A stretch of 64,000 bases of DNA, taken from NCBI RefSeq assembly GCF_003018235.1, contig NZ_CP027437.1; one strand, written 5' to 3'. Of this stretch, positions 6,191-37,052 are shown piece after piece. This DNA is from Escherichia coli. Lineage in GTDB: Bacteria; Pseudomonadota; Gammaproteobacteria; Enterobacterales; Enterobacteriaceae. Position numbers and translations under genes: made by a program. The notes beneath the pieces are model-generated. The model was not told where the DNA came from. It ran no database searches and saw nothing but the letters and a program-made list of their open reading frames with translations. Within the stretch, counting starts at the first letter, position 1, and each line of letters begins with the position of its first letter.

Positions 6191-6397
6191 TCAGTAAAAA
6201 TCACCAGTTGCCTTTTCTGCCTGATCCATCCACACCGGTTTCTCGCTGGTTTTCGACCAGACGCGGTGCAGGTAGCTGTAAAAGCGGGCGCGGTCTTTCC
6301 AGAAAAGCATGAAAGGCAGCGCCAGAACGCCCGCTGCAACCGCATAAGTACGGCGTAAAAAGATAAGCCATGCAGGATATTCTCTGTAGAGTTCCAT
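6191..6397 (-). CDS. ybfA: YbfA, small DUF2517 protein (68 aa)
   Basis: 68-aa translation [16 protein letters not shown]... matches recalled K-12 YbfA; sits between rhs and kdpF as in K-12. Confidence 0.8.
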
Positions 6398-6606
6398 ACT
6401 TTTCTCCCCCTTTTGTATCTACCCGGTGAATGGCACCGGAAAAATGAATTTGTTTATCTGATGAAAATAGTACCGCCTTTTGTGTAATTTTACTACTCAT
6501 CCGACCACTTATTTTTGCTTATTGATGGTTTATTTACATTCATACCGTAATTAAGTTACACAAAGGTTAAATTAATACTAAACATTAGTTAAATCATGGC
6601 TTTTGC

Positions 6607-6675
6607 CATTTTTATACTTTTTTTACACCCCGCCCGCAGATTTTTGCGAAATCTTTGCAGCCAGAATTCTACCCT
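6607..6675 (+). promoter_or_regulatory. kdpFABC promoter region with KdpE-binding direct repeat
   Basis: T-rich direct repeat TTTTTATACTTTTTTTACACC about 80 bp upstream of kdpF, followed by TTGCGA as a -35 candidate. Matches the recalled KdpE box; exact -10 uncertain. Confidence 0.5.
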
Positions 6676-6709
6676 TCCGGTATCACTTTTAGGCCACTGG
6701 AGGTGCACT

Positions 6710-6799
6710 GTGAGTGCAGGCGTGATAGCCGGCGTGTTGCTGGTGTTTTTATTACTGGGTTATCTGGTTTATGCCCTGATCAATGCGGAGGCGTTCTGA
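6710..6799 (+). CDS. kdpF: KdpF, K+-ATPase small subunit (29 aa)
   Basis: GTG start; translation [29 protein letters not shown]; stop overlaps the kdpA ATG. Below the ORF-track size cut-off. Confidence 0.85.
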
Positions 6800-8472
6800 T
6801 GGCTGCGCAAGGGTTCTTACTGATCGCCACGTTTTTACTGGTGTTAATGGTGCTGGCACGTCCTTTAGGCAGCGGGCTGGCGCGGCTGATTAACGACATA
6901 CCTCTTCCCGGTACAGCGGGCGTTGAACGTATACTCTTTCGTTTACCTGGCGTCTCTGACAGTGAGATGAACTGGAAGCAGTATCTCTGTGCCATTCTCG
7001 GCCTGAACATGCTGGGGCTGGCGGTGCTGTTTTTTATGTTGCTCGGTCAGCACTATCTGCCGCTTAATCCACAGCAGTTGCCAGGGCTGTCGTGGGATCT
7101 GGCGCTGAATACCGCCGTCAGCTTTGTCACCAATACCAACTGGCAATCTTATAGCGGTGAAACCACGTTGAGCTATTTCAGCCAGATGGCGGGCTTAACG
7201 GTACAAAACTTTCTTTCTGCCGCCAGCGGGATTGCGGTGATTTTTGCCCTCATTCGTGCGTTTACCCGCCAGAGCATGAGCACACTCGGGAATGCCTGGG
7301 TCGATCTGTTACGTATCACGTTATGGGTGCTAGTCCCTGTGGCGTTGTTGATCGCACTGTTTTTTATTCAACAAGGTGCACTGCAAAACTTTCTGCCCTA
7401 TCAGGCGGTGAATACCGTTGAAGGAGCGAAACAGCTGTTACCCATGGGTCCGGTGGCTTCTCAGGAAGCGATAAAGATGCTCGGCACTAACGGCGGTGGC
7501 TTCTTTAATGCCAACTCGTCGCATCCGTTTGAAAACCCAACCGCACTGACCAACTTCGTGCAGATGCTGACGATCTTCTTGATCCCAACGGCACTGTGCT
7601 TTGCCTTTGGCGAAGTGGCGGGCGATCGCCGTCAGGGGCGCATGTTGCTGTGGGCGATGTCAGTGATTTTTGTCATCTGCGTAGGCGTGGTGATGTGGGC
7701 AGAAGTTCAGGGTAATCCTCATCTGCTGGCGCTGGGTGCGGACAGCAGCATCAATATGGAAGGTAAAGAGAGCCGTTTCGGCGTGCTGGTCAGTAGCCTG
7801 TTTGCGGTCGTGACTACGGCGGCTTCCTGTGGCGCGGTGATTGCGATGCATGATTCGTTTACCGCTCTCGGTGGCATGGTGCCGATGTGGCTGATGCAAA
7901 TTGGTGAAGTGGTATTCGGCGGTGTCGGTTCTGGTCTTTACGGCATGATGCTGTTTGTTCTGCTGGCGGTGTTTATTGCCGGGCTGATGATTGGTCGTAC
8001 ACCGGAATATCTGGGTAAAAAAATCGACGTACGTGAGATGAAACTGACCGCGCTGGCGATTCTGGTCACCCCGACGCTGGTGCTGATGGGCGCGGCGCTG
8101 GCAATGATGACCGACGCCGGACGTAGCGCCATGCTCAACCCTGGCCCGCATGGTTTTAGCGAAGTGCTGTACGCCGTGTCATCCGCCGCTAACAACAACG
8201 GCAGCGCCTTTGCCGGATTAAGCGCCAACTCTCCGTTCTGGAACTGTTTACTGGCGTTCTGCATGTTTGTCGGTCGCTTCGGGGTGATTATCCCGGTGAT
8301 GGCAATTGCCGGTTCGCTGGTGAGTAAAAAGAGCCAACCCGCCAGCTCCGGCACATTGCCAACGCACGGCCCGCTGTTTGTTGGCCTGTTAATCGGCACC
8401 GTGTTGCTGGTTGGCGCACTGACCTTTATCCCTGCCCTGGCGCTTGGTCCGGTGGCGGAATATCTCTCCTGA
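6799..8472 (+). CDS. kdpA: KdpA, K+-transporting ATPase potassium-binding subunit (557 aa)
   Basis: Translation from [12 protein letters not shown]... matches KdpA; ATG overlaps the kdpF stop (ATGA). The ORF-track N-terminal extension from 6655 is rejected. Confidence 0.95.
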
Positions 8473-8494
8473 TGATATTGAGTGAGCACTGAAT

Positions 8495-10543
8495 ATGAGT
8501 CGTAAACAACTGGCGCTATTCGAACCAACACTTGTCCTTCAGGCGCTGAAAGAAGCGGTGAAAAAATTAAACCCGCAGGCGCAATGGCGCAATCCGGTGA
8601 TGTTTATCGTCTGGATCGGCAGTCTGCTGACCACCTGTATTAGCATCGCGATGGCAAGCGGTGTGATGCCTGGCAATGCGCTGTTTAGCGCGGTAATTAG
8701 CGGCTGGCTGTGGGTCACCGTACTGTTCGCTAATTTCGCCGAGGCGTTGGCAGAAGGCCGCAGTAAAGCGCAGGCCAACAGTCTGAAAGGGGTGAAAAAA
8801 ACTGCCTTTGCCCGCAAGCTGCGTGAGCCGAAATATGGCGCTGCGGCGGACAAAGTTCCCGCCGATCAACTGCGTAAAGGCGATATCGTACTGGTGGAAG
8901 CTGGCGATATTATCCCCTGCGATGGTGAAGTCATTGAAGGGGGCGCATCGGTCGATGAAAGCGCCATCACCGGGGAATCGGCACCGGTGATCCGTGAATC
9001 CGGCGGCGATTTTGCCTCCGTCACTGGCGGCACGCGTATTCTTTCTGACTGGCTGGTGATTGAGTGCAGCGTTAACCCCGGCGAGACATTTCTGGATCGG
9101 ATGATCGCGATGGTGGAAGGCGCGCAGCGACGCAAAACGCCGAACGAGATTGCCCTGACCATCCTGCTGATTGCCCTGACTATCGTCTTTTTACTGGCAA
9201 CCGCCACGCTGTGGCCGTTTTCCGCGTGGGGCGGTAATGCAGTCAGCGTAACGGTACTGGTGGCGCTGCTGGTCTGTCTGATCCCAACGACCATTGGCGG
9301 TCTGTTGTCAGCGATCGGCGTCGCCGGGATGAGTCGGATGCTGGGCGCGAATGTGATTGCCACCAGCGGACGTGCAGTTGAAGCGGCGGGTGACGTTGAC
9401 GTCCTGCTGCTGGATAAAACCGGCACCATCACACTCGGTAACCGTCAGGCGTCGGAGTTTATCCCCGCGCAGGGCGTGGATGAAAAAATGCTGGCTGACG
9501 CCGCACAACTGGCTTCGCTGGCTGATGAAACGCCGGAAGGCCGCAGTATTGTGATCCTCGCCAAGCAGCGTTTTAACCTGCGCGAGCGCGATGTGCAGTC
9601 GCTCCATGCCACCTTTGTACCGTTTACTGCGCAAAGCCGGATGAGCGGGATCAACATCGACAACCGCATGATCCGTAAAGGTTCTGTCGATGCCATTCGC
9701 CGCCATGTTGAGGCTAATGGTGGTCACTTCCCAGCCGATGTTGATCAAAAAGTCGATCAGGTTGCGCGTCAGGGGGCCACGCCGCTGGTGGTGGTGGAAG
9801 GTTCCCGTGTGCTGGGCGTTATTGCGCTGAAAGATATCGTCAAAGGCGGTATTAAAGAGCGCTTCGCCCAGCTGCGCAAAATGGGCATTAAAACGGTGAT
9901 GATTACCGGCGATAACCGTCTGACTGCCGCCGCCATTGCTGCGGAAGCGGGCGTCGATGATTTTCTCGCCGAAGCGACACCGGAGGCCAAGCTGGCATTG
10001 ATTCGTCAGTATCAGGCGGAAGGCCGTTTGGTGGCGATGACCGGCGACGGCACCAATGATGCTCCGGCGCTGGCGCAGGCAGATGTCGCGGTAGCGATGA
10101 ACTCCGGTACTCAGGCGGCGAAAGAAGCGGGCAATATGGTGGATCTCGACTCTAACCCGACCAAGTTGATCGAGGTGGTGCACATTGGCAAACAGATGCT
10201 GATGACCCGTGGCTCGCTGACCACCTTCAGCATTGCCAACGATGTGGCGAAATACTTCGCCATTATTCCGGCGGCGTTCGCGGCAACATATCCACAGTTA
10301 AATGCGCTGAACATCATGCGCCTGCATTCGCCCGACTCCGCAATCCTCAGTGCGGTCATTTTCAACGCCTTGATTATCGTCTTTTTGATTCCCCTGGCGT
10401 TAAAAGGCGTGAGTTATAAACCGCTTACCGCTTCTGCCATGTTGCGCCGTAACTTATGGATTTACGGTCTGGGTGGGCTGCTGGTGCCGTTTATTGGTAT
10501 CAAAGTCATTGATTTACTGCTGACCGTTTGCGGTCTGGTGTGA
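8495..10543 (+). CDS. kdpB: KdpB, P-type ATPase catalytic subunit (682 aa)
   Basis: P-type ATPase motifs DKTGT and GDGTNDAP present; operon context. Confidence 0.95.
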
Positions 10544-10551
10544 GGTTTACC

Positions 10552-11124
10552 ATGCGTGGATTACGTCCGGCATTATCGACATTTATCTTTCTGTTATTGA
10601 TTACTGGCGGCGTTTACCCGCTGCTAACCACCGCGCTGGGGCAATGGTGGTTTCCCTGGCAGGCCAACGGTTCGTTGATCCGTGAAGGTGATACGGTGCG
10701 CGGTTCGGCATTAATCGGGCAGAATTTTACCGGCAACGGCTATTTTCATGGTCGCCCGTCGGCAACGGCAGAAATGCCCTATAATCCACAGGCTTCTGGC
10801 GGGAGCAATCTGGCGGTCAGTAACCCTGAGCTGGATAAACTAATAGCCGCACGCGTTGCTGCATTACGGGCCGCTAACCCTGATGCCAGCGCGAACGTTC
10901 CGGTTGAACTGGTGACGGCATCGGCAAGCGGGCTGGACAATAACATCACCCCGCAAGCGGCAGCCTGGCAGATCCCACGCGTGGCGAAAGCGCGTAATCT
11001 CAGCGTTGAACAGCTCACGCAACTGATCGCAAAATACAGCCAACAACCGCTGGTGAAATATATCGGCCAGCCGGTCGTCAACATTGTCGAACTCAATCTG
11101 GCGCTGGATAAGCTTGATGAATAA
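10552..11124 (+). CDS. kdpC: KdpC (190 aa)
   Basis: ATG at 10552 gives [16 protein letters not shown]..., matching KdpC length; the ORF-track TTG start at 10528 overlaps kdpB and is unlikely. Confidence 0.9.
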
Positions 11125-13801
11125 CGAACCCTTACGTCCCGACCCCGATCGTCTGCTGGAACAAACTGCCGCGCCGCATCGGGGGAAGCTGAAAGTTTTC
11201 TTCGGTGCCTGCGCAGGCGTCGGGAAGACCTGGGCGATGCTGGCAGAAGCCCAGCGACTGCGGGCGCAAGGGCTGGATATTGTGGTTGGCGTGGTAGAAA
11301 CCCACGGGCGGAAAGATACCGCCGCAATGCTGGAAGGGCTGGCTGTTCTGCCGTTAAAACGCCAGGCGTACCGTGGGCGGCACATCAGCGAGTTTGATCT
11401 CGATGCCGCCCTCGCCCGCCGTCCGGCACTGATCTTAATGGACGAACTGGCGCACAGTAATGCGCCAGGTTCTCGTCATCCTAAACGCTGGCAGGACATC
11501 GAAGAGCTGCTGGAAGCTGGCATTGATGTTTTCACAACCGTCAACGTTCAGCATCTGGAAAGTCTGAATGATGTGGTCAGCGGCGTCACCGGAATTCAGG
11601 TACGGGAAACCGTGCCCGATCCTTTTTTCGATGCCGCCGACGACGTGGTGCTGGTGGACTTGCCCCCGGACGATCTGCGTCAACGGCTGAAAGAAGGTAA
11701 AGTCTATATTGCCGGGCAGGCGGAACGCGCCATTGAACATTTTTTTCGCAAAGGCAATCTGATCGCCCTGCGCGAACTGGCACTGCGCCGTACTGCCGAT
11801 CGCGTAGATGAGCAAATGCGCGCCTGGCGGGGGCATCCTGGCGAAGAGAAAGTCTGGCACACGCGCGACGCGATCCTTTTATGCATCGGGCATAACACCG
11901 GCAGCGAAAAACTGGTCCGCGCGGCGGCGCGGCTGGCGTCACGGCTGGGTAGCGTCTGGCACGCGGTGTATGTTGAAACCCCTGCCCTGCATCGCTTACC
12001 GGAGAAAAAACGTCGGGCAATTCTCAGCGCCTTACGTCTGGCGCAGGAGCTGGGCGCAGAGACGGCAACACTTTCTGATCCAGCGGAAGAGAAAGCGGTA
12101 GTGCGTTATGCCCGTGAACATAATCTTGGCAAGATTATTCTCGGTCGCCCGGCCTCGCGCCGCTGGTGGCGTCGGGAAACGTTTGCTGACCGACTGGCGC
12201 GCATCGCCCCCGATCTCGATCAGGTGCTGGTCGCGCTTGATGAACCACCCGCCCGCACGATAAACAACGCGCCGGATAGCCGCTCTTTTAAAGACAAGTG
12301 GCGGGTACAGATTCAGGGATGCGTGGTTGCCGCCGCGTTATGCGCCGTTATCACCTTAATTGCCATGCAGTGGCTGATGGCGTTTGATGCCGCCAACCTG
12401 GTGATGCTGTATCTACTTGGCGTGGTGGTGGTGGCGCTATTTTATGGGCGCTGGCCTTCGGTGGTTGCTACCGTCATTAATGTGGTGAGTTTCGATCTCT
12501 TTTTTATCGCCCCACGCGGCACGCTCGCCGTCTCTGATGTGCAATATCTGCTGACCTTCGCGGTGATGTTAACCGTCGGGCTGGTGATCGGGAACCTTAC
12601 TGCTGGCGTTCGTTATCAGGCGCGGGTAGCCCGTTACCGCGAGCAACGCACACGGCACTTATATGAAATGTCGAAAGCTCTGGCGGTGGGCCGCAGTCCG
12701 CAGGACATCGCCGCCACCAGCGAACAATTTATTGCCTCCACGTTTCATGCCCGCAGTCAGGTGTTGTTGCCCGATGACAACGGTAAATTGCAGCCGTTAA
12801 CACATCCGCAAGGAATGACGCCGTGGGACGATGCCATCGCGCAGTGGAGTTTTGATAAAGGCCTGCCTGCGGGCGCGGGCACCGACACGTTACCCGGTGT
12901 ACCGTACCAGATTTTGCCGCTAAAAAGCGGCGAGAAAACCTACGGGCTGGTGGTGGTGGAACCGGGGAATCTGCGCCAGTTGATGATCCCGGAACAGCAA
13001 CGCCTGCTGGAGACGTTTACGCTGTTAGTCGCCAATGCCCTTGAGCGGCTGACACTGACCGCCAGCGAAGAACAGGCGCGGATGGCAAGCGAACGAGAAC
13101 AGATCCGCAACGCCCTGCTGGCGGCGCTTTCGCATGATTTACGCACGCCGCTTACGGTGCTGTTCGGTCAGGCAGAAATCTTAACGCTCGATCTGGCGAG
13201 CGAAGGATCGCCCCACGCCCGCCAGGCCAGCGAGATTCGTCAGCATGTGCTGAACACGACCCGACTGGTGAATAATCTACTGGATATGGCGCGAATTCAG
13301 TCCGGCGGCTTTAATTTGAAGAAAGAGTGGTTAACGCTGGAAGAAGTGGTCGGCAGCGCGCTGCAAATGCTGGAACCGGGTTTATCGTCGCCCATCAATC
13401 TTTCTCTGCCAGAACCGCTGACCTTAATCCACGTTGACGGGCCACTCTTTGAACGGGTGCTGATTAATCTGCTGGAGAACGCGGTGAAATACGCGGGTGC
13501 GCAGGCCGAAATTGGTATCGATGCCCACGTTGAGGGCGAAAATCTACAACTGGATGTCTGGGATAATGGCCCCGGTCTTCCGCCAGGCCAGGAGCAGACG
13601 ATATTTGATAAGTTTGCTCGCGGGAATAAAGAGTCGGCGGTACCGGGTGTAGGGCTTGGGCTGGCAATTTGTCGGGCGATTGTGGATGTACACGGCGGCA
13701 CCATTACCGCGTTCAACCGACCGGAAGGTGGTGCCTGTTTTCGTGTTACACTTCCCCAGCAAACTGCCCCTGAACTTGAAGAATTTCATGAGGATATGTG
13801 A
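11117..13801 (+). CDS. kdpD: KdpD sensor histidine kinase (894 aa)
   Basis: ATG at 11117 ([16 protein letters not shown]...) overlaps the kdpC stop; Walker-type GVGKT, membrane segments and C-terminal histidine kinase domain. Confidence 0.95.
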
Positions 13802-14475
13802 CAAACGTTCTGATTGTTGAAGATGAACAGGCTATTCGTCGCTTTCTGCGCACGGCGCTGGAGGGCGATAGGATGCGCGTCTTTGAGGCCGAAACGCTGC
13901 AACGCGGCTTGCTGGAAGCGGCTACCCGTAAGCCAGATTTGATTATTCTCGATCTCGGCCTGCCCGATGGTGATGGGATTGAGTTTATCCGCGACCTGCG
14001 CCAGTGGAGCGCAGTGCCGGTGATTGTGCTTTCCGCACGTAGCGAAGAGAGCGACAAAATCGCCGCGCTGGATGCCGGAGCGGATGATTATCTGAGTAAG
14101 CCGTTTGGCATTGGCGAATTGCAGGCCCGTCTGCGCGTCGCATTACGCCGCCACTCTGCCACCACCACGCCCGATCCGCTGGTGAAATTTTCCAATGTTA
14201 CCGTCGATTTAGCGGCTCGAGTGATCCATCGCGGTGAGGAAGAGGTGCATCTCACCCCGATTGAGTTCCGCCTGCTGGCGGTGTTGCTTAATAATGCGGG
14301 AAAAGTGCTCACCCAGCGCCAGCTCCTTAACCAGGTGTGGGGGCCAAACGCGGTCGAACACAGTCATTATTTGCGTATTTATATGGGGCATCTGCGACAA
14401 AAACTGGAACAGGATCCCGCCCGCCCACGCCATTTCATTACTGAAACCGGTATTGGGTATCGGTTTATGCTTTGA
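13798..14475 (+). CDS. kdpE: KdpE response regulator (225 aa)
   Basis: GTG start overlapping the kdpD stop; receiver plus winged-helix translation [17 protein letters not shown]... Confidence 0.95.
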   Translation: MTNVLIVEDEQAIRRFLRTALEGDRMRVFEAETLQRGLLEAATRKPDLIILDLGLPDGDGIEFIRDLRQWSAVPVIVLSARSEESDKIAALDAGADDYLSKPFGIGELQARLRVALRRHSATTTPDPLVKFSNVTVDLAARVIHRGEEEVHLTPIEFRLLAVLLNNAGKVLTQRQLLNQVWGPNAVEHSHYLRIYMGHLRQKLEQDPARPRHFITETGIGYRFML

Positions 14476-14519
14476 ATTGTTATTCAATAAATTCGCTTTA
14501 ATAGTGATTAATTTATTAT

Positions 14520-14554
14520 TAAACCTGCTCCAAATATTATTATTTGGCAGGTTT
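14520..14554 (+). terminator. Hairpin downstream of kdpE (possible terminator)
   Basis: 8-bp inverted repeat AAACCTGC ... GCAGGTTT with an 18-nt AT-rich loop, 45 bp after the kdpE stop; T-tract weak. Confidence 0.3.
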
Positions 14555-14749
14555 AATTTCTTAACGCAAATATAAAACACGAAATTACAACATTTAAGTA
14601 ACAAAACAGCATCTAATATAGCAATATTCATAATTAATGATTTATTATCTGGGGTATGATCGTTTTTTTTTGATCTTCTTCACAGATTATAGCCATTTCA
14701 TGGATAGAATAACTCTACCTTCAACTGACACAGCAAGAGGTAAAGGTAA

Positions 14750-14854
14750 ATGGAAAATAATAACCGCTTAATGCCTCATATAAGGCGGACAACCCATATC
14801 ATGAAGTTTGCCCATCGTAATAGTTTTGACTTTCATTTCTTTAATGCCCGCTAG
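14750..14854 (+). CDS. speFL: SpeFL, ornithine-sensing leader peptide of speF (34 aa)
   Basis: Translated by hand: MENNNRLMPHIRRTTHIMKFAHRNSFDFHFFNAR, stop TAG at 14852-14854; about 300 bp upstream of speF. Matches the recalled arrest peptide in length and HIRRTTH core. Not in the ORF track (under 60 aa). Confidence 0.8.
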   Translation: MENNNRLMPHIRRTTHIMKFAHRNSFDFHFFNAR

Positions 14855-15164
14855 TCTTCTGACTAAAGGGCACCCCAACGTACAGGTCTCCCTGACTTTA
14901 AGCATTACAGGTTAATACCTGTATCCTTCGGTGCTCATATACTGCTAACCCTTTTAAACTCTAAATAATTCGAGTCGCAGCACTTGCAACTTGAGGTATG
15001 ACGAGTATAGCCAGTTACCGGGCTGGTCTGGGTTATTGCATCTACAAAAAGCAAACTACTGATTTATTTATCAGCGGTGGGGTTTTGCTTTTTTTCCGGC
15101 GTGATCGATTTCTCCTTTGAGAAATTGAGGACCTGCTATTACCTGAAATAAAGAGATGAACAAA

Positions 15165-17363
15165 ATGTCAGAATTAAAAATTGCCGTTAGTCGTTCTTGC
15201 CCGGATTGTTTTTCAACTCATCGCACATGCGTGAATATTGACGAAAGTAATTATATTGACGTTGCCGCCATTATTTTATCGGTCAATGATGTGGAACGTG
15301 GAAAACTCGATGAAATAGACGCTACTGGCTATGGCATTCCTGTTTTTATTGCAACGGAAAATGAAGAACGTGTACCCGCAGAATATCTGCCACGTATTTC
15401 TGGTGTCTTCGAACATTGCGAATCACGTAAAGAGTTTTATGGACGTCAGTTAGAAACCGCTGCAAGCCATTATGAAACGCAACTGCGCCCGCCCTTCTTC
15501 CGCGCACTGGTCGATTATGTTAATCAGGGCAATAGTGCTTTTGACTGCCCTGGTCATCAGGGGGGTGAGTTTTTCCGTCGCCATCCGGCAGGCAATCAGT
15601 TCGTGGAATACTTTGGTGAGGCGCTGTTCCGTGCTGACTTGTGCAACGCCGACGTAGCGATGGGCGATCTGCTGATTCACGAAGGCGCGCCATGCATTGC
15701 ACAGCAACATGCGGCTAAAGTCTTTAATGCCGATAAAACCTATTTCGTTTTAAACGGTACTTCATCTTCTAATAAAGTGGTCTTAAACGCATTGCTGACG
15801 CCGGGCGATCTGGTGTTGTTTGACCGCAATAACCATAAATCTAACCACCACGGTGCGTTGCTACAGGCTGGCGCGACACCGGTTTATCTGGAAACCGCAC
15901 GTAACCCGTATGGTTTTATCGGTGGTATTGACGCTCACTGTTTTGAAGAAAGTTACCTGCGTGAGCTGATTATAGAAGTTGCACCGCAGCGGGCAAAAGA
16001 GGCTCGTCCTTTCCGCCTCGCCGTTATTCAGCTAGGCACTTACGACGGTACGATTTATAACGCCCGTCAGGTGGTGGATAAAATTGGTCATCTGTGTGAC
16101 TACATCCTCTTTGACTCCGCATGGGTCGGCTATGAGCAGTTTATCCCGATGATGGCGGACTGTTCACCACTGTTGCTGGATCTTAATGAGAACGATCCGG
16201 GTATTCTGGTTACGCAATCCGTACATAAACAGCAGGCTGGTTTTTCTCAAACTTCACAAATCCATAAAAAAGACAGCCACATCAAAGGGCAACAGCGTTA
16301 TGTACCGCACAAACGCATGAACAACGCCTTTATGATGCACGCCTCCACCAGCCCGTTCTATCCGCTGTTTGCCGCACTGGATATCAACGCCAAAATGCAT
16401 GAAGGTGTCAGCGGTCGTAATATGTGGATGGATTGTGTGGTAAATGGCATTAATGCCCGCAAACTGATCCTCGATAACTGTCAGCATATTCGTCCGTTCG
16501 TACCTGAACTGGTGGATGGTAAACCCTGGCAGTCGTATGAAACAGCGCAAATTGCGGTTGATCTGCGCTTCTTCCAGTTTGTACCAGGGGAACACTGGCA
16601 TTCTTTTGAAGGCTATGCAGAGAATCAATACTTTGTTGATCCGTGCAAACTGTTGCTGACAACCCCAGGTATTGATGCACGTAACGGCGAATATGAAGCG
16701 TTCGGTGTACCCGCGACGATTCTTGCTAATTTCCTGCGCGAAAATGGCGTAGTGCCGGAAAAATGCGATCTTAACTCCATCCTCTTCCTGCTGACTCCAG
16801 CAGAAGATATGGCCAAACTTCAGCAACTTGTTGCCCTGCTGGTACGCTTCGAAAAACTGCTGGAATCTGATGCGCCGCTGGCGGAAGTGCTACCTTCCAT
16901 CTACAAACAGCATGAAGAGCGCTACGCCGGTTATACGCTTCGTCAGTTGTGCCAGGAAATGCATGATTTGTATGCCCGCCACAACGTGAAACAACTGCAA
17001 AAAGAGATGTTCCGTAAGGAACACTTCCCACGCGTCAGCATGAATCCGCAAGAAGCTAACTACGCCTATTTACGCGGTGAAGTGGAGCTGGTTCGTCTGC
17101 CGGATGCAGAAGGCCGTATCGCTGCCGAAGGTGCGCTTCCTTATCCTCCGGGTGTGCTGTGTGTTGTTCCGGGTGAAATCTGGGGTGGTGCTGTTTTGCG
17201 TTACTTCAGCGCTCTGGAAGAAGGGATCAACCTGCTGCCAGGTTTTGCACCGGAGCTGCAGGGTGTCTATATCGAAGAACATGATGGTCGTAAGCAAGTT
17301 TGGTGCTATGTCATCAAGCCTCGTGATGCGCAAAGCACCCTGTTGAAAGGGGAAAAATTATGA
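15165..17363 (+). CDS. speF: SpeF, inducible ornithine decarboxylase (732 aa)
   Basis: Fold-III PLP decarboxylase translation. ATG at 15165 has AAGAG about 10 nt upstream and gives the K-12 length; the ORF-track ATG at 15156 lacks spacing to the same motif. Confidence 0.9.
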   Translation: MSELKIAVSRSCPDCFSTHRTCVNIDESNYIDVAAIILSVNDVERGKLDEIDATGYGIPVFIATENEERVPAEYLPRISGVFEHCESRKEFYGRQLETAASHYETQLRPPFFRALVDYVNQGNSAFDCPGHQGGEFFRRHPAGNQFVEYFGEALFRADLCNADVAMGDLLIHEGAPCIAQQHAAKVFNADKTYFVLNGTSSSNKVVLNALLTPGDLVLFDRNNHKSNHHGALLQAGATPVYLETARNPYGFIGGIDAHCFEESYLRELIIEVAPQRAKEARPFRLAVIQLGTYDGTIYNARQVVDKIGHLCDYILFDSAWVGYEQFIPMMADCSPLLLDLNENDPGILVTQSVHKQQAGFSQTSQIHKKDSHIKGQQRYVPHKRMNNAFMMHASTSPFYPLFAALDINAKMHEGVSGRNMWMDCVVNGINARKLILDNCQHIRPFVPELVDGKPWQSYETAQIAVDLRFFQFVPGEHWHSFEGYAENQYFVDPCKLLLTTPGIDARNGEYEAFGVPATILANFLRENGVVPEKCDLNSILFLLTPAEDMAKLQQLVALLVRFEKLLESDAPLAEVLPSIYKQHEERYAGYTLRQLCQEMHDLYARHNVKQLQKEMFRKEHFPRVSMNPQEANYAYLRGEVELVRLPDAEGRIAAEGALPYPPGVLCVVPGEIWGGAVLRYFSALEEGINLLPGFAPELQGVYIEEHDGRKQVWCYVIKPRDAQSTLLKGEKL

Positions 17364-18679
17364 GTCAGGCTAAATCGAACAAAATGGGCGTCGTTCAGTT
17401 AACCATACTGACGATGGTCAACATGATGGGCTCCGGTATCATCATGCTGCCGACAAAGCTTGCCGAAGTTGGGACAATTTCAATTATCTCCTGGCTGGTG
17501 ACAGCCGTAGGCTCAATGGCACTGGCATGGGCATTCGCAAAATGCGGTATGTTCAGCCGTAAATCAGGCGGTATGGGCGGTTATGCGGAGTATGCTTTCG
17601 GTAAATCCGGGAACTTTATGGCGAACTATACCTACGGCGTCTCACTGCTAATTGCTAACGTCGCGATTGCTATTTCGGCGGTTGGTTACGGCACCGAACT
17701 GCTCGGCGCGAGTTTGTCGCCAGTGCAGATTGGTCTTGCGACCATCGGGGTGCTGTGGATTTGTACCGTGGCTAACTTTGGTGGTGCGCGCATTACCGGG
17801 CAAATCAGTAGCATTACCGTGTGGGGGGTCATTATTCCGGTGGTAGGCCTGTGCGTTATCGGCTGGTTCTGGTTTAGCCCGACGCTTTACGTTGATTCCT
17901 GGAATCCGCATCATGCACCGTTCTTCAGTGCGGTAGGTTCTTCCATCGCTATGACGCTGTGGGCTTTTCTTGGTCTGGAGTCTGCGTGTGCGAATACTGA
18001 TGTAGTGGAAAACCCGGAACGTAATGTGCCAATCGCGGTACTCGGCGGTACGTTAGGTGCGGCGGTGATTTATATCGTCTCCACCAACGTGATTGCAGGG
18101 ATTGTGCCTAATATGGAGCTGGCAAATTCAACGGCACCATTTGGCCTGGCCTTCGCACAGATGTTCACGCCAGAAGTGGGTAAAGTCATTATGGCGCTGA
18201 TGGTGATGTCCTGCTGCGGTTCGCTGCTTGGCTGGCAGTTCACCATTGCCCAGGTGTTTAAATCTTCATCTGATGAAGGCTACTTCCCTAAAATTTTCTC
18301 CCGTGTAACCAAAGTGGATGCACCGGTGCAGGGAATGTTGACCATTGTGATTATCCAGAGCGGGTTGGCGCTGATGACGATTAGCCCGTCGCTAAACAGT
18401 CAGTTCAACGTGCTGGTTAACCTAGCCGTGGTGACCAATATCATTCCGTATATTCTGTCAATGGCGGCATTAGTCATTATTCAGAAGGTCGCTAATGTGC
18501 CCCCCTCAAAAGCGAAAGTTGCAAACTTTGTTGCTTTTGTTGGCGCGATGTACAGCTTTTATGCGCTGTACTCATCCGGGGAAGAAGCCATGCTATACGG
18601 TTCCATCGTGACCTTCCTCGGTTGGACACTGTATGGTCTGGTCTCACCACGCTTTGAACTGAAAAATAAACACGGTTAA
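17360..18679 (+). CDS. potE: PotE, putrescine-ornithine antiporter (439 aa)
   Basis: APC-family transporter; ATG overlaps the speF stop (ATGA). Confidence 0.95.
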   Translation: MSQAKSNKMGVVQLTILTMVNMMGSGIIMLPTKLAEVGTISIISWLVTAVGSMALAWAFAKCGMFSRKSGGMGGYAEYAFGKSGNFMANYTYGVSLLIANVAIAISAVGYGTELLGASLSPVQIGLATIGVLWICTVANFGGARITGQISSITVWGVIIPVVGLCVIGWFWFSPTLYVDSWNPHHAPFFSAVGSSIAMTLWAFLGLESACANTDVVENPERNVPIAVLGGTLGAAVIYIVSTNVIAGIVPNMELANSTAPFGLAFAQMFTPEVGKVIMALMVMSCCGSLLGWQFTIAQVFKSSSDEGYFPKIFSRVTKVDAPVQGMLTIVIIQSGLALMTISPSLNSQFNVLVNLAVVTNIIPYILSMAALVIIQKVANVPPSKAKVANFVAFVGAMYSFYALYSSGEEAMLYGSIVTFLGWTLYGLVSPRFELKNKHG

Positions 18680-18690
18680 TTAAGCAAAGC

Positions 18691-18722
18691 AAAAAAGGGC
18701 GATCTTCCGACCGCCCTTTTTC
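18691..18722. terminator. Bidirectional intrinsic terminator between convergent potE and pgm
   Basis: A6 - GGGCG..CGCCC hairpin - T5, in the 56-bp gap between the potE stop (18679) and pgm stop (18736). Confidence 0.55.
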
Positions 18723-18735
18723 TTATTTAATGTGT

Positions 18736-20376
18736 TTACGCGTTTTTCAGAACTTCGCTAACAATCTCAACCGCTTCTTTCTCGATCTGCTTGCGATGCT
18801 CTTCACCGAGGAAGCTTTCGCAATAAATCTTGTACGCGTCTTCCGTGCCTGACGGACGCGCGGCGAACCAGCCGTTGTCAGTCATCACTTTCAGACCGCC
18901 AATAGAAGCACCGTTGCCCGGAGCAGCAGTCAGGCGTGCGGTGATCGGGTCACCTGCCAGGGTGCTGGCGCTCACCATTTCCGGAGACAGCTTAGACAGC
19001 GCCGCTTTTTGTGCGGAAGTCGCAGCTGCCTGCAAACGGTTGTAGCTCGGCGCACCAAAGCGTTTTGCCAGTTCGTTGTAGTGTTCCTGCGGGTTCTTAC
19101 CGGTGACAGCGGTGATTTCCGCCGCCAGCAGACACATGATGATGCCGTCTTTGTCGGTGGACCACGGCGTGCCGTCGAAACGCAGGAAGGAAGCCCCCGC
19201 ACTCTCTTCGCCGCCAAAGCCGAAGCTGCCGTCAAACAGACCATCAACAAACCATTTGAAACCTACCGGGACTTCTACCAGTTTACGGCCCAAATCGTTG
19301 ACCACACGGTCGATCATCGCAGAAGAAACCAGCGTTTTACCGACAGCAACATCTTTGCCCCACTGCGGACGGTGCTGGAACAGGTAGTTGATCGCCACCG
19401 CCAGGTAGTGGTTCGGATTCATCAAACCTGCCGGAGTGACGATACCGTGACGGTCATAATCCGGGTCGTTAGCAAACGCCAGATCGAACTTATCACGCAG
19501 TGCCAGCAGACCCGCCATCGCACACTCGGAGGAGCAGTCCATACGGATCGCACCGTCTTTATCTAGGTGCATAAAGCGGAAGGTTTGATCGACCTGATCG
19601 TTAACGATGGTCAGGTTGAGGTTGTAATACTCGCCAATGCGCTTCCAGTATTCGATACCGGAACCACCCAGCGGATCAACGCCCAGCGTCAGGCCCGCTT
19701 TCTGAATCGCCGCCATATCAACGATATCGGCCAGCCCTTCCACAAACGGCTGCACCAGATCCTGCTCTTTCACATGACCGGATGCCATCGCTTCGTCGAG
19801 GGAGATACGCTTCACGCCTTTCAGGCCATCGGCCATCAGTGCGTTGGCCCTGTCTTCCACCACTTTGGTGACGTTAGTATCAGCCGGGCCACCATTTGGC
19901 GGATTGTACTTGATACCACCATCTTCCGGCGGGTTATGGGACGGTGTAATCACGATACCGTCTGCCAGCGGGCCACCTTTTTTATTGTGAACCAGAATGG
20001 CATTGGAAATGGCAGGTGTCGGAGTGAAGCCATTGTTTTCCTGCACAATGACATCAACGCCGTTCGCTGCCAGCACTTCCAGAACGGAAATGAACGCAGG
20101 CTCGGACAGGGCGTGAGTATCTTTACCCACATAGCAAGGGCCAGTGATGCCGTTTTTCGCACGTTCTTCAGCAATTGCCTGAGCGATCGCCAGAATGTGC
20201 GGCTCGTTAAAGCTGTGGCGCGCTGCACTGCCACGGTGACCGGAAGTACCGAATTTCACCGCGTGCTCCGCATTCCCTGCTTCTGGTTTCAGTACATAAT
20301 ATTGCGCCGTTAGTTGGGCGACGTTAATCAAATCACTCTGTTGTGCAGGTTGGCCTGCACGATTGTGGATTGCCAT
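18736..20376 (-). CDS. pgm: Phosphoglucomutase (546 aa)
   Basis: ATG at 20376 gives [22 protein letters not shown]...; TSGHRG and SHNP motifs of alpha-D-phosphohexomutases. The 17-aa ORF-track extension is rejected. Confidence 0.95.
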
Positions 20377-20401
20377 TGCTTTGTCCTTTGTCTGCAACGT
20401 T

Positions 20402-20947
20402 TTAGATAGTTCCGCAAACCTTCTCAATCAATTCCGCCGGGAATTGCATCGACTGCATGATGTGTTCGATCATGCTGCATTTACGGCCGGTGTTGGTGTT
20501 GGTGATCACCCAATACGGCGTGCCAGGCACATGTTTCGGCTTGGTCTGATTACCATTTTTCAGCAGCGTTTGTTCATCTGCCGCAAAGTAAACGCGTGTA
20601 CGACCGTGCAACGATTCCGTTGCTTCGGCAAACGCCTGGGCGTCAAGAGAATATAGTGTAGACAACAGCAGCATAAAGCGATTGACCGCTCGCTTTTGCT
20701 CTGCGTATTCATCCGAAAGCAGAAGTTCACGCATTGCGCGAACCTTGTCTTTAATCGTTTTGACCGGCTTCGCTTCGACGATAGCAGGTGACGCAACGCG
20801 AACCTCTTTCGTCACCGGAGCAGCAGGCTGTGATGCGGCGGAAAATTTCAACATACGCCGTAAAATGTCGGATGCGCTCTCGCCGATATGCTTAGTGTGG
20901 CTGGCAATATAGCTGTAGAGTTCATCATCAACTTCAATCGTTTTCAT
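20402..20947 (-). CDS. seqA: SeqA, replication-origin sequestration protein (181 aa)
   Basis: ATG at 20947 gives [33 protein letters not shown]...; the longer ORF-track start is rejected. Confidence 0.95.
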
Positions 20948-21131
20948 CTTAATCCAGTGCAGTGTCTTAGCTGAATACAAGTCGCCAGGAGTATATGAAT
21001 AAATCCCGGCAGCGGATAGCGTCAAGCCTGGCTTGCAGAAAAACTCGGAATAAACCTTATTTGTTGCAGCCCTGTGGCACAATGGTCAACATAATACCCT
21101 AACCCGACAACGCGAAAAAAAGAACTTTGCC

Positions 21132-21896
21132 ATGAAATTGAATATCCGCGCGCAAACTGCACAAAACCAGCACAATAATTCTCCCATCGTTCTTGTCCAT
21201 GGTCTGTTTGGCAGTCTCGACAACCTTGGCGTACTGGCTCGCGATCTGGTAAACGATCACAATATCATCCAGGTTGATATGCGTAACCACGGTCTTTCAC
21301 CGAGAGATCCAGTGATGAATTACCCGGCGATGGCGCAGGATCTTGTTGATACCCTGGATGCACTGCAGATCGACAAAGCAACATTTATCGGTCACTCCAT
21401 GGGCGGTAAAGCGGTAATGGCACTTACTGCACTGACCCCCGATCGGATTGACAAGCTGGTGGCAATTGATATTGCTCCGGTCAATTATCACGTTCGCCGG
21501 CATGATGAGATTTTCGCGGCCATCAACGCAGTCAGTGAATCGGACGCACAAACTCGCCAGCAAGCAGCAGCAATAATGCGCCAGCATCTTAATGAAGAAG
21601 GGGTGATTCAGTTTCTGCTGAAATCTTTTGTTGATGGGGAGTGGCGCTTTAACGTGCCGGTATTGTGGGATCAGTATCCGCATATTGTGGGTTGGGAGAA
21701 AATCCCGGCATGGGATCACCCTGCCCTGTTTATCCCTGGCGGCAATTCTCCGTATGTTAGCGAGCAGTACCGCGATGATTTACTGGCACAATTTCCACAG
21801 GCACGGGCGCATGTGATTGCAGGCGCGGGTCACTGGGTCCATGCTGAAAAACCGGATGCGGTATTACGCGCTATCCGTCGCTATCTCAATGATTAA
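21132..21896 (+). CDS. ybfF: YbfF, alpha/beta-hydrolase esterase (254 aa)
   Basis: HGLFGS ... GHSMGG nucleophile elbow; divergent from seqA as in K-12. Confidence 0.9.
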   Translation: MKLNIRAQTAQNQHNNSPIVLVHGLFGSLDNLGVLARDLVNDHNIIQVDMRNHGLSPRDPVMNYPAMAQDLVDTLDALQIDKATFIGHSMGGKAVMALTALTPDRIDKLVAIDIAPVNYHVRRHDEIFAAINAVSESDAQTRQQAAAIMRQHLNEEGVIQFLLKSFVDGEWRFNVPVLWDQYPHIVGWEKIPAWDHPALFIPGGNSPYVSEQYRDDLLAQFPQARAHVIAGAGHWVHAEKPDAVLRAIRRYLND

Positions 21897-21901
21897 CGCA
21901 A

Positions 21902-21917
21902 CTGATTAAAAACCCAG
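21902..21917 (+). promoter_or_regulatory. LexA (SOS) box candidate upstream of ybfE
   Basis: CTG-N10-CAG (CTGATTAAAAACCCAG) about 120 bp upstream of ybfE; ybfE is recalled as LexA-regulated in K-12. Confidence 0.5.
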
Positions 21918-22035
21918 CGCCCGCGTCGCTTTCCGCGCGCGGGCGTTGGCGTGACTCATCGCGCTGATGTATTATGGCGCGCTATCCATCCGGGCAGAGG
22001 CCTGGCTGATTGTTTCCCCCGAAGTCACCAAAATC

Positions 22036-22329
22036 ATGGCCAAAGAACAAACGGACCGTACGACATTAGATCTGTTCGCGCACGAGCGTCGACCGGGACG
22101 ACCGAAAACTAATCCGCTTTCGCGCGATGAACAGCTGCGTATTAATAAACGCAACCAGCTAAAACGCGACAAAGTACGTGGCCTTAAGCGTGTCGAACTG
22201 AAGCTGAACGCGGAAGCTGTCGAGGCGCTGAACGAGCTGGCGGAATCGCGCAATATGAGCCGTAGCGAACTGATCGAAGAGATGTTAATGCAGCAACTGG
22301 CGGCGCTGCGTAGTCAGGGCATCGTTTAA
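22036..22329 (+). CDS. ybfE: YbfE, small SOS-regulated protein (97 aa)
   Basis: ATG at 22036 gives [33 protein letters not shown]...; upstream ORF-track extension rejected. Confidence 0.8.
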
Positions 22330-22468
22330 ATTTCCACTTTCATGTAGCACAGTGTGCAGTCCTGCTCGTTTGCTGATTCCGCAAGACTGCCTGTTCTGCT
22401 ATGATTGCCTTTATCCGTGGGCAATTTTCCACCCCCATTTCAATAAGTTTCAAGAGGTTATTTCACTC

Positions 22469-22999
22469 ATGGCTATCACTGGCATCTTTTTCGGCAGCGA
22501 CACCGGTAATACCGAAAATATCGCAAAAATGATTCAAAAACAGCTTGGTAAAGACGTTGCCGATGTCCATGACATTGCAAAAAGCAGCAAAGAAGATCTG
22601 GAAGCATATGACATTCTGCTGCTGGGCATCCCAACCTGGTATTACGGCGAAGCGCAGTGTGACTGGGATGACTTCTTCCCGACTCTCGAAGAGATTGATT
22701 TCAATGGCAAACTGGTTGCGCTGTTTGGCTGTGGTGACCAGGAAGATTACGCTGAATACTTCTGTGACGCATTGGGCACCATCCGCGACATCATTGAACC
22801 GCGCGGTGCAACCATTGTTGGTCACTGGCCAACTGCGGGCTACCATTTCGAAGCGTCAAAAGGTCTGGCAGATGACGACCACTTTGTCGGTCTGGCTATC
22901 GACGAAGACCGTCAGCCGGAACTGACCGCTGAACGTGTAGAAAAATGGGTTAAACAGATTTCTGAAGAGTTGCATCTCGACGAAATTCTCAATGCCTGA
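22469..22999 (+). CDS. fldA: Flavodoxin 1 (176 aa)
   Basis: ATG at 22469 gives [23 protein letters not shown]..., the long-chain flavodoxin FMN-binding motif. Confidence 0.95.
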
Positions 23000-23204
23000 T
23001 GTGATGCGGCGTAGACTCATGTCTACGCCGTATTAATAGATAATGCCAATCAAAATAATTGCTACAAATTTGTAACTTTTGCTGTTGTACCTGTACAATG
23101 TCCCGGTGTTCAAGTGGCCTTGCCGTTGTAAATGTAAGCTGTGCCACGTTTTTATTAACAATATTTGCCAGGGACTTGTGGTTTTCATTTAGGCGTGGCA
23201 ACTC

Positions 23205-23223
23205 TATAATGATACGCATTATC
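23205..23223 (+). promoter_or_regulatory. Fur box at the uof-fur promoter
   Basis: TATAATGATACGCATTATC against consensus GATAATGATAATCATTATC; overlaps the uof start codon. Confidence 0.6.
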
Positions 23224-23295
23224 TCAAGAGCAAATTCTGTCACTTCTCCTAATGAAGTGAACCGCTTAGTAACAGGACAGATTCCGCATGACTGA
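23209..23295 (+). CDS. uof: Uof, upstream leader ORF of fur (28 aa)
   Basis: ATG at 23209 gives MIRIISRANSVTSPNEVNRLVTGQIPHD; its stop overlaps the fur start region. Confidence 0.75.
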   Translation: MIRIISRANSVTSPNEVNRLVTGQIPHD

Positions 23296-23734
23296 TAACA
23301 ATACCGCCCTAAAGAAAGCTGGCCTGAAAGTAACGCTTCCTCGTTTAAAAATCCTGGAAGTTCTTCAGGAGCCGGACAACCATCACGTCAGTGCGGAAGA
23401 TTTATACAAACGTCTGATCGATATGGGTGAAGAAATTGGTCTGGCTACGGTATATCGCGTACTGAACCAGTTTGACGATGCTGGTATCGTCACCCGCCAC
23501 AATTTTGAAGGCGGTAAATCCGTATTTGAACTGACACAGCAACATCACCACGATCACCTGATCTGCCTCGACTGCGGCAAGGTTATCGAATTTAGTGATG
23601 ATTCCATCGAAGCGCGTCAGCGTGAAATTGCCGCAAAACATGGCATTCGCCTGACTAACCACAGTCTCTATCTTTACGGTCACTGTGCCGAAGGCGATTG
23701 CCGCGAAGATGAGCACGCGCACGAAGGCAAATAA
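23288..23734 (+). CDS. fur: Fur, ferric uptake regulator (148 aa)
   Basis: Translation MTDNNTALKKAGLKVTLPRLKILEVLQ... with HHHDH and C-terminal Cys pairs. Confidence 0.97.
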   Translation: MTDNNTALKKAGLKVTLPRLKILEVLQEPDNHHVSAEDLYKRLIDMGEEIGLATVYRVLNQFDDAGIVTRHNFEGGKSVFELTQQHHHDHLICLDCGKVIEFSDDSIEARQREIAAKHGIRLTNHSLYLYGHCAEGDCREDEHAHEGK

Positions 23735-23749
23735 GCCAGCCGGAACGAG

Positions 23750-23778
23750 AAAAGCCAACCTGCGGGTTGGCTTTTTTA
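23750..23778 (+). terminator. Intrinsic terminator after fur
   Basis: AGCCAACC-TGCG-GGTTGGCT hairpin followed by TTTTTT, 16 bp after the fur stop. Confidence 0.7.
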
Positions 23779-23817
23779 TACACGGGAAATAAGAAAAGCG
23801 AGAGTTACAGCTCTCAC

Positions 23818-24144
23818 TTATTTGTTATTACTGCGAATTTCCTGCCAGACCTTATCACAATCGGCTTTCACCGCCTGATCATTACCGGTTTGCGTTGCGC
23901 GCAGACACTGCTGATAATCCAGTACGCGTACACTTTCCTGGTCGGCAAACTGCTGATGTTGTTTCTCTTTCTTCAGCACGTTTAACACGCTCTGGCAGGC
24001 TTCAATTTTTTCTGGCGAACCTTGTGCGGTGTTGATACAGGCGCTGTATGCCTCTTTCAGACGACTGTCTTCCTGTGGCGCGGTTGATTGCGCACAAGCT
24101 ACCAGCCCCGATGCCATTATGGCGATGAGAATCAGTTTTTTCAT
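23818..24144 (-). CDS. chiQ: ChiQ (YbfN) lipoprotein (108 aa)
   Basis: Lipoprotein signal MKKLILIAIMASGLVAC (lipobox LVAC); immediately downstream of chiP. Confidence 0.85.
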   Translation of the reverse strand: MKKLILIAIMASGLVACAQSTAPQEDSRLKEAYSACINTAQGSPEKIEACQSVLNVLKKEKQHQQFADQESVRVLDYQQCLRATQTGNDQAVKADCDKVWQEIRSNNK

Positions 24145-24193
24145 AGCAAATTCCTCAAACGTGCGGCAGGCACAAAACCTGCCGCGTCGGGCA

Positions 24194-25600
24194 TCAGAAG
24201 ATGGTGAATGGTGCGATTACCATAAATTTCACGTCACGCTCATCCTGGAAAATGTTGCCGTAACCACCGCCCCAGCTTGGGATGTCGGAGTGGTTGTCGT
24301 ATTCGGTGAAGTGCAGTTTGAACATCGTGCCTTTGGCGCGACCGTCCTGAATGGTGTAGACCGCATCCAGGCTGTAGGCAGACTCTTCAATAGTCCGGTT
24401 TTTGTCGTAGTACGCATCCGGATTGCTCTGCCAGGTAGCGGGTTTAGCATCCCATGCGTAAACGTAGGAAGCGCCGATGGCGAAGCCTGGAAGATTCCAG
24501 TTTTTCAAGTCATACATCGCACCGAAGAAGACCGCTTTTTCGCCGTTGGCGTTGAAGTCAGAACGGTTATCCCACCAGATATCCAGGCGACCGTTGGAGG
24601 AAGCGTAGGTTGGAGTCATACGTTGCAGGAAGTATCCCTGCTGACCGTCGGCTTTAACCCAGGTGCCTTCCAGACGCAAATCCACTACATCAGCCGCCCG
24701 GTAACCAAAGGTCAATGCTTGCAGCCAGGCAGTGCCGTCGTAAAGGTCGTTGACGCTGCGATCGTCAACTTTATCGCGCGTACCGTAGAACTGGTAGCTG
24801 GTGGTTAACGGGCTACCGGCGATATCAAATTTGTAGCTGGCTTTGGCAAAGTATTGATCGATATACCCTTCCGCCTGACCAAATGCTGCTTCCAGTACGA
24901 AGTTATTTTTGAAGTCGTATTTCGCACCGATGGAGTGCAGATAATCAACTTTGGTGGTTTTATCGTTCTGATAAAACTCATCCATTTCCAGATGCCACGG
25001 TGCTTTGTATTCGTTGGTCCACATGTAGGAGAAACTCAACGCACCAGCATCGCCGTAATCAAAATTCGCCCCGGCTTCCGCCCCCTGATAAGTACCCGGC
25101 ATAAAGCTCCAGTGCGGCGCTAACAGCGTTTGACCAGTTGGCTGAATGTAACCTGCCCTCGCCCAAACCGGACCGTATTTAAATTTGGCCGCTGCTTTAT
25201 ACAGGCTTATACCGCTTTTATCGCCGGACCAGTCTTCGTCATAGGCTTTATTACTTTTTGAAAACGCGATTTCGTTCGGGTGAGAGCTGTCACCGTTTTC
25301 CGCCATTTCAATCGCCGTAAACGCGGCAATATCAAGGCCGAACATATCAGCAGCATAACCGGACTGAAAATCGAGGTTGGCGTTCCAGGTGGAGTGAGAA
25401 AGGTTGGTTTTGTATTTGTCGCCGTCGGTAACATCTTTACGGTCGCGTTCACGCTGCCAGTAATAGATACCGCCGGTTAAGGTTGAATCGTCGATGAATC
25501 CTTCGGCGCGAGCCTCCGGCATTGCCATAAAGCCCGACATTGCTGTAACACCGGCGATAGCCAGCGCCAGCGTACTACGTTTGCCACTAAACGTACGCAT
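24194..25600 (-). CDS. chiP: ChiP (YbfM) chitooligosaccharide outer-membrane porin (468 aa)
   Basis: Signal peptide, aromatic-rich beta-barrel sequence ending in terminal Phe (FTIF); downstream of glnS as in K-12. Confidence 0.9.
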
Positions 25601-25953
25601 GGGTTAATCCTCTTTGACGTATAAATTGCTGCACCAAAGGTGAACAGCGAAAAAAATAAAAATTAAAAAAGTAGCGTTGAGAAAAGTCTCGCTGACTACA
25701 GGAACAGACTATTTTTCGCGACGCGAATTATCAATCTCTTTCTGTAACCAGAATGTAAGAACATGAGCAACCGCACATATTTTGATGATTTTTGTTACAA
25801 GGCTTAAGTTTGCAGTTGAAAGGCTTGCAGAAGAATAAAAACGTGAAATTCCAGCAAGATGAAAGCGGTTACATTTTATTTAATTATGTTTTGTGATTTT
25901 AAATTTATTTTATGGATAAATTGCGAAGCGGAATTAATTCGCGAAGAAAAGCA

Positions 25954-25980
25954 GAAAAAAACGCCGCAGAGCGCGGCATT
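25954..25980 (-). terminator. Intrinsic terminator downstream of glnS
   Basis: On the minus strand, GCCGCGC-TCT-GCGGCG hairpin followed by a T-run. Confidence 0.5.
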
Positions 25981-26002
25981 TTGAATTGTTTGCATGTTTC
26001 AT

Positions 26003-36533: not shown

Positions 36534-36610
36534 GGCTACGTAGCTCAGTTGGTTAGAGCACATCACTCATAATGATGGGGTCACAGGTTCGAATCCCGTC
36601 GTAGCCACCA
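36534..36610 (+). tRNA. metT: tRNA-Met (elongator, anticodon CAU)
   Basis: 77-nt GGCTACGTAGCTCAGTTGGTTAGAGCACATCACTCATAATGATGGGGTCACAGGTTCGAATCCCGTCGTAGCCACCA with encoded CCA. Confidence 0.95.
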
Positions 36611-36620
36611 TCTTTTTTTT

Positions 36621-36705: not shown

Positions 36706-36728
36706 TTCACCAGAAAGCGTTGTACGGA

Positions 36729-36803: not shown

Positions 36804-36837
36804 TCTTCTTCGAGTAAGCGGTTCACCGCCCGGTTAT

Positions 36838-36912: not shown

Positions 36913-36927
36913 TCGAAGAAACAATCT

Positions 36928-37004: not shown

Positions 37005-37052
37005 AATTCTGAATGTGTCGAATATGTTCGGCAAATTCAAAAACCAATTTGT

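Follow-up and report, generated by a model that had tools for sequence, protein, structure and literature searches.

A compact potE-pgm junction with one predicted bidirectional terminator in Escherichia coli: a majority allele that may have arisen repeatedly by deletion between terminator copies

The window analysed here, a 64,000-nucleotide stretch of an E. coli genome, carries the compact form of the potE-pgm junction, in which the 3′ ends of the two convergent genes are contiguous, without ybfP, ybfG or ybfI between them. As a description of this strain the compact junction is correct but ordinary: the site is known to vary between strains, this allele is the one in the majority, and public annotation already implies it. 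Two additions are of some interest, namely that the block found at this place in K-12 is bracketed by terminators, and that, on the evidence, compact alleles can arise secondarily, by recurrent deletion.

In the window, speF (inducible ornithine decarboxylase; 15165..17363, + strand) is the first gene of the speF-potE operon and is followed by potE (putrescine-ornithine antiporter; 17360..18679, + strand), both placed from the list of open reading frames and the collinear annotation of strain ETEC1738. The potE gene ends with GGT TAA at 18674-18679, the stop codon being at 18677-18679. On the opposite strand, pgm (phosphoglucomutase; 18736..20376) has its stop at 18736-18738, seen as TTA on the + strand, and its start at 20376 was taken from the same collinear annotation. 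The spacer between the two stops, to which no strand is assigned, was read directly from the sequence. The sequence-only reading had claimed a gap of 56 bp holding one hairpin, and on both points the sequence and the list of open reading frames agree with it: the spacer is exactly 18680-18735, and nearly its whole length is made of a single hairpin with an A-tract on one side and a T-tract on the other. This hairpin (18691..18722), which we call the beta version, can be folded from either strand; it comprises an A6 tract (18691-18696), a left stem GGGCGATC (18697-18704), a TTCC loop (18705-18708), a right stem GACCGCCC (18709-18716) and a T5 tract (18717-18721), beginning 11 nt past the potE stop and ending 13 nt short of the pgm stop. 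A blastn search with the K-12 genes found no match to ybfP or ybfG in the whole 64-kb window, and ybfI-like sequence was confined to kdpE itself; the spacer has neither the 1.7-kb block nor the two terminator copies of the K-12-type allele.

Folding of the hairpin RNA gave −21.3 kcal/mol for the + strand (z = −2.8; 3 of 200 shuffled sequences were as good) and −25.7 kcal/mol for the − strand (z = −4.1; none of 200 as good). The + strand stem contains one A.C mismatch, at the position where the − strand has a G.U pair. Because of this mismatch, a scan with a terminator consensus called only the − strand (pgm) version, with a stem of 14 pairs. On both strands a U-tract lies directly 3′ of the stem, CCC-UUUUUCUUAUUU on the + strand and CCC-UUUUUUGCUUUGCUU on the − strand. 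The element thus combines a GC-rich stem-loop that folds better than shuffled sequences, U-tracts on both strands and a position after two convergent stops. From its structure, its position and the layout of the outgroups, we predict that it ends both converging transcripts by intrinsic termination. Termination is predicted to be stronger for pgm, since the latter has a perfect stem with a G.U pair followed by six U, versus an A.C mismatch and five U for potE.

It is very improbable that the hairpin is chiefly something else, for instance a small RNA gene, a palindrome bound by a protein or a REP/BIME unit. Other alleles do have REP elements at this locus (REP/BIME sequences are present in K-12, E69 and the speF-less alleles), but a direct read of 18680-18735 shows that the REP consensus palindrome (GCCGGATGCGGCG...CCGGCCTAC) is absent from the spacer of the window. 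A scan of positions 18300-19100 against Rfam 15 (E ≤ 1) returned no family at its gathering score and no small RNA; weak matches on the hairpin, the best being MicX (23.7 bits for a gathering score of 75) and STnc320 (22 for 50), might be quoted in favour of another function, but all are far under the gathering scores and span the generic stem and T-run only. In addition, an A-run, a GC-rich hairpin and a T-run follow the two stops in 41 of 54 outgroup potE-pgm spacers, although the stem sequences differ (GGGCGATC, GGAGCC, GGGAGCC, CGGCAACC, CAGGCTCC and GGGAGCGA in different genera). This layout, kept without conservation of the sequence itself, is what would be expected of a conserved terminator and therefore gives indirect support to such a role. 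Terminators that serve two convergent E. coli genes at once are an established class, according to a preprint that cites the SEnd-seq work of Ju et al. 2019 (bioRxiv 10.1101/2022.10.23.513370). As in the cases described there, a single element between converging genes would here set both 3′ ends; the preprint lays stress on non-canonical sites involving polymerase collision, whereas the hairpin of the window looks classical, with U-tracts on both strands.

Comparison with K-12 reveals what is missing. The order in MG1655 is pgm (stop at 715198), ybfP, the ybfG pseudogene, the ybfI pseudogene and potE (stop at 716946), with an inter-stop distance of 1,747 bp (the b0688-b0692 interval), versus 56 bp in the window. 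The sequence-only reading was thus right in placing ybfP and ybfG between pgm and potE in K-12, where it omitted ybfI, and in calling the strain non-K-12 at this junction. Read from potE, the K-12 block consists of a hairpin that we call alpha, a 43-nt repeat, ybfI, ybfG, ybfP (on the opposite strand), a second 43-nt repeat, a BIME and the beta hairpin, followed by pgm; in other words, it lies between two diverged terminator copies, alpha adjoining potE and beta adjoining pgm. The sequence of K-12 alpha is AAAAAAGGGCGAT-TGAATG-ATCGCCCTTT and that of K-12 beta is AAAAAAGGGCGATC-TTGC-GACCGCCCTTTTTTT; both are preceded by GT, which makes the left arm a perfect repeat of 15 nt. A repeat finder described the region as nested direct repeats, both with 81% identity: the 31-nt terminators (D2), and the 43-nt sequences (D1), one copy of which abuts alpha while the other is upstream of ybfP. 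When the window was aligned with K-12 by BLAST, two segments were obtained that overlap on exactly 13 nt, AAAAAAGGGCGAT, the left arm of the hairpin (18691..18703), and at this point the alignment passes from one flank, that of potE, to the other, that of pgm. This arm is thus the breakpoint of the indel, and the window equals K-12 minus everything between the terminator left arms. The flanking genes, their orientation and the pgm-proximal terminator are the same, K-12 beta differing from the hairpin of the window by one loop base, and potE and pgm each show about 95% identity over their last 100 bp; the second terminator (alpha), the 43-nt repeat, ybfI, ybfG, ybfP and the BIME are present in K-12 only.

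How the two states are distributed was assessed in 5,426 complete E. coli genomes. With a query of 661 bp spanning the junction of the window, a match with at least 80% coverage was obtained in 3,196 of them (59%), including O157:H7, IHE3034, NRG 857C and F11. The 1,747-bp interval of K-12, used as a query with the same coverage threshold, was matched in 1,851 (34%), among which are K-12 derivatives, a B-derived strain and an O6:H16 ETEC. A speF-potE query matched 5,048 genomes, leaving 378 (7%) without a match, and the three classes add up to 5,425 of the 5,426 genomes. The K-12 ybfP-ybfG-ybfI block is thus a strain-variable accessory segment. The sequence-only reading had allowed that K-12 and most strains might share the 56-bp junction; K-12 does not, but the compact state is indeed that of most genomes. 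Because of this majority, the junction is a weak marker and identifies no lineage: it splits the K-12-like genomes from the majority, and is of little use beyond strain typing. These counts also bear on whether the short spacer could be an assembly artefact, the 1.7-kb block having collapsed between similar hairpins. The 13-15 nt shared by the K-12 hairpins could in principle mislead an assembler, but a 15-nt repeat is far under the collapse length of any assembler, potE and pgm are adjacent in 3,196 complete genomes, many of them long-read, all 18 full-length matches listed for the compact query are single pieces of 660-661 bp, and the nearest relatives show no difference from the window in the spacer. 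The probability of such an artefact is therefore negligible. We came across no published description of the polymorphism; one pangenome paper mentions frequent speF pseudogenes only.

Outside K-12-like genomes, the layout of the window recurs widely. In other compact E. coli (e.g. O157:H7 NE 1169-1, ETEC1738 and D3), as in E. albertii NBRC 107761, there is one hairpin in a spacer of 55-57 bp. All the compact E. coli sampled have a spacer of 55-56 bp, in which few bases vary relative to the window, the loop being TTCC, TTGC or TTCT; in ETEC1738 and S1bESBLb the spacer is identical to that of the window. A scan for PotE with one genome per species gave 80 loci, from E. albertii and many genera; none of them came from a standard E. 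coli representative, E. fergusonii, E. marmotae or E. ruysiae. The potE and pgm genes are convergent in 54 of them (E. albertii and 53 others, from Enterobacteriaceae and related genera), where the order is kdpE-speF-potE/pgm-seqA-ybfF and the inter-stop gap has a median of 110 bp (range 35-1,086 bp). No tblastn match to YbfP or YbfG was found at any of these outgroup loci. A different insert of 0.57-1.1 kb is present between potE and pgm in L011, L013 (Salmonella enterica subspecies), L017, L024, L042, L044 (Kluyvera), L047, L051 and L053; it starts with a hairpin and an ORF (ATGAGCAATCCAG...) and is unrelated to ybfP/ybfG by tblastn. Since the outgroups are compact and devoid of ybfP and ybfG, and since YbfP is restricted to E. 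coli/Shigella, the family-level ancestor was probably compact and the ybf block would be an Escherichia-specific gain. The potE-pgm site itself has hosted inserts more than once.

The simplest way to extend this conclusion to the window would be to suppose that its compact allele is the retained ancestral state, the block having been inserted once elsewhere in E. coli and the beta hairpin, with the same bidirectional terminator function, descending in situ from a hairpin of the E. albertii type. This is the default reading, for the compact form is both the majority in E. coli and the state of every outgroup: the spacer of E. albertii, 57 bp long, is collinear with that of the window, 34 of the 54 outgroup gaps are under 150 bp without ybf genes, and YbfP is found in E. 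coli/Shigella only. We nevertheless regard retention as possible rather than probable, because it is difficult to reconcile with the age of the block, with the identity of the hairpins and with the way haplotypes are shared between structural states.

As to the block, the 144 nt of ybfI duplicate the 3′ end of kdpE, with about 91% identity to the resident gene, and in each of the seven block alleles examined the 5′ boundary of ybfI falls at one and the same position of kdpE (ybfI lies at 6722-6871 of locus L001, with equivalents in L085, L088, L089 and L105-L108). Given this common boundary, the ybf block was once directly downstream of a kdpE gene, and its architecture has a single origin. 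YbfG is a DUF2625 protein (Pfam, from an intact fragment; the K-12 ybfG is a pseudogene with an in-frame stop), and YbfP has no Pfam family. For YbfP, 27 homologue clusters were retrieved, all of which, where an organism is named, are from E. coli or ‘Enterobacteriaceae multispecies’, and no homologue was found outside E. coli/Shigella; an origin of ybfP in another genus was considered and set aside for lack of any such homologue or Pfam family. The gene is thus an E. coli-only lipoprotein gene with a conserved lipobox, LLLTAC. Its alleles are intact and have dS values of 0.1-0.3 and dN/dS values of 0.2-0.4 (comparison of L001 5413-5907, L083 5256-5750, L084 4191-4685, L085 4783-5277, L099 6001-6495 and L105 1739-2233), and YbfP of the common speF-less allele has only 78% protein identity to that of K-12. 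We infer that ybfP is an orphan lipoprotein gene under purifying selection, with unusually deep alleles. Since its dS is to be compared with a divergence of 0.7-3% at the adjacent 3′ end of pgm, the block is probably old, older than the typical core divergence of E. coli, a point against simple retention. In two genomes, genes for IS200-family transposases are found inside the block (L085 5546-6004; L108 828-1286), one between ybfP and pgm and the other directly after potE, at the usual site of the alpha hairpin.

The direction of change was examined in a small sample, made up of 8 compact loci, 7 with the block and about 8 that lack speF. The eight compact E. coli junctions, taken from across the range of identity, all have the beta hairpin, i.e. 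the copy that adjoins pgm in all forms with the block. In contrast, the one hairpin that E. albertii has is a single base from K-12 alpha and identical to the alpha of E69, and it differs from beta at 5 of 12 loop and upper-stem positions (alpha-type CGAATGAT in E. albertii, beta being CTTCCGAC). These distances point to alpha as the likely orthologue of the hairpin in E. albertii. Moreover, there are three haplotypes of the beta hairpin and its right flank, and each is found in both compact and block-bearing genomes. The TTGC loop followed by TTTTTTTATTAAATG is shared by K-12 and L107, which have the block, and by the compact D3 and 600468; TTCT with CTTATTAAATG is found in L105 (block) and L092 (compact); and TTCC with CTTATTTAATG occurs in L106, L108, the speF-less genomes and E69 on the one hand, and in the compact window, ETEC1738 and S1bESBLb on the other. 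The same is true on the potE side, where the final 300 bp of the gene fall into two deep haplotype families and compact and block states are present in each: the potE 3′ end of the compact L092 has 6 differences from that of L085, a block allele, versus 17-21 from other compact alleles and 18 from K-12, and the compact strain 600468 has no difference from K-12. On the other hand, the exact potE-side flank of the window, TTAATTAAGCAAAGC, was found in none of the seven block alleles examined, so that no parent allele was found for it, a point in favour of retention.

Sharing of haplotypes between states is directly explained by independent deletions from different block-bearing parents, an explanation that we favour. 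A similar pattern could result, without independent events, from homologous recombination close to the junction. But since homology between compact and block alleles ends in the 13-15-nt arm, a transfer of haplotypes from one state to the other needs a very short crossover target, and a single insertion would require that crossovers occurred repeatedly within about 15 bp of homology. On balance we consider it somewhat probable that recurrent deletion between terminator copies, rather than retention of the ancestral compact state, accounts for the compact alleles. In this scheme, a still older ancestor would have been compact, a single gain of the ybf block in the Escherichia lineage would have been followed by repeated losses, and the compact allele of the window would derive from a block-bearing ancestor by deletion between the alpha and beta terminator copies. 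A crossover in the perfectly repeated left arm, (GT)AAAAAAGGGCGAT, would join a pure beta hairpin to the potE flank. Such terminator-to-terminator deletion would have happened more than once.

Deletion between short direct repeats, by slipped misalignment or short-homology recombination, is well known in E. coli genetics. The present case resembles it in that the difference between K-12 and the window amounts to one repeat copy plus all that lies between two perfect repeats of 13-15 nt. It departs from the generic case in that the repeats are arms of two functional-looking hairpins, so that the product regenerates a complete predicted terminator. If deletion is the right reading, the locus would provide a clean natural example of duplicated terminator hairpins that bracket an accessory block and of a precise loss that leaves a functional terminator behind.

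A further illustration is provided by the allele of locus L005 (CP089930.1, labelled E. coli E69, a record that is not part of the RefSeq complete E. coli set). Between positions 2460 and 9183 its kdpE, speF and potE are 91.7, 87.6 and 88.1% identical to those of K-12, while seqA and pgm are 99.5 and 96.2% identical; kdpE-speF-potE therein looks like an introgressed or foreign segment. The E69 spacer, 222 bp long, contains alpha, one 43-nt copy, a BIME and beta, without ybf genes, and it corresponds to K-12 minus the sequence between the 43-nt repeats. The coexistence of alpha and beta in the absence of ybf genes is another argument against simple retention.

In the speF-less examples that were read, the elements downstream of kdpE are a BIME, ybfP and pgm, in this order, and speFL, speF, potE and ybfG are absent (L083 4467-5955; L084 3214-4862; L086 3562-5050; L087 7824-9284; L099-L104). 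The exact kdpE-BIME-ybfP junction of one of these genomes was matched with at least 80% coverage in 247 genomes, and L084 has an additional 79-nt fragment of the kdpE 3′ end and a second BIME. Formation of this allele by recombination between kdpE and ybfI was considered and discarded, the kdpE 3′ ends of these genomes carrying none of the signature substitutions of ybfI. That about 7% of complete E. coli genomes lack speF-potE at this site bears on polyamine and acid-stress phenotypes and on pangenome metabolic models. Taking the classes together, one may envisage that potE-pgm is an old multi-allelic polymorphism in which the diverged terminators act as a recombination hinge, the block, gained once and older than the typical coalescent of the E. 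coli core, being recurrently shed with regeneration of a working terminator, and the acid-inducible speF-potE system being separately lost in 7% of genomes; for us this broader view is evenly poised between acceptance and rejection.

The surroundings of the junction are themselves diverse. PotE of the window is 100% identical to that of K-12 at the protein level; speF is 93.5% identical in nucleotides (97% in protein), and kdpE, pgm and seqA are 96.5, 97.7 and 99.8% identical, respectively, in nucleotides. The best match of positions 6000-26000 among complete E. coli genomes is 99.2% over 20 kb (MEI003), and identity to ETEC1738 is 98.4-99.0%. Deep alleles thus segregate in the kdp-speF neighbourhood (13798-17363, comprising kdpE, speFL and speF), in line with the adjacent structural diversity. 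Three other differences from ETEC1738 were noted. Parts of the window at 1-905 and 4919-5094, in the region of an Rhs protein, are not alignable to it, as is usual for variable Rhs tips. An IS903B lies in the ETEC1738 porin gene beside chiQ and is absent from the window (at about 25050). Finally, seven tRNA genes (Met, Leu, Gln, Gln, Met, Gln, Gln) are found at 36534-37239 of the window, where ETEC1738 is annotated with six.
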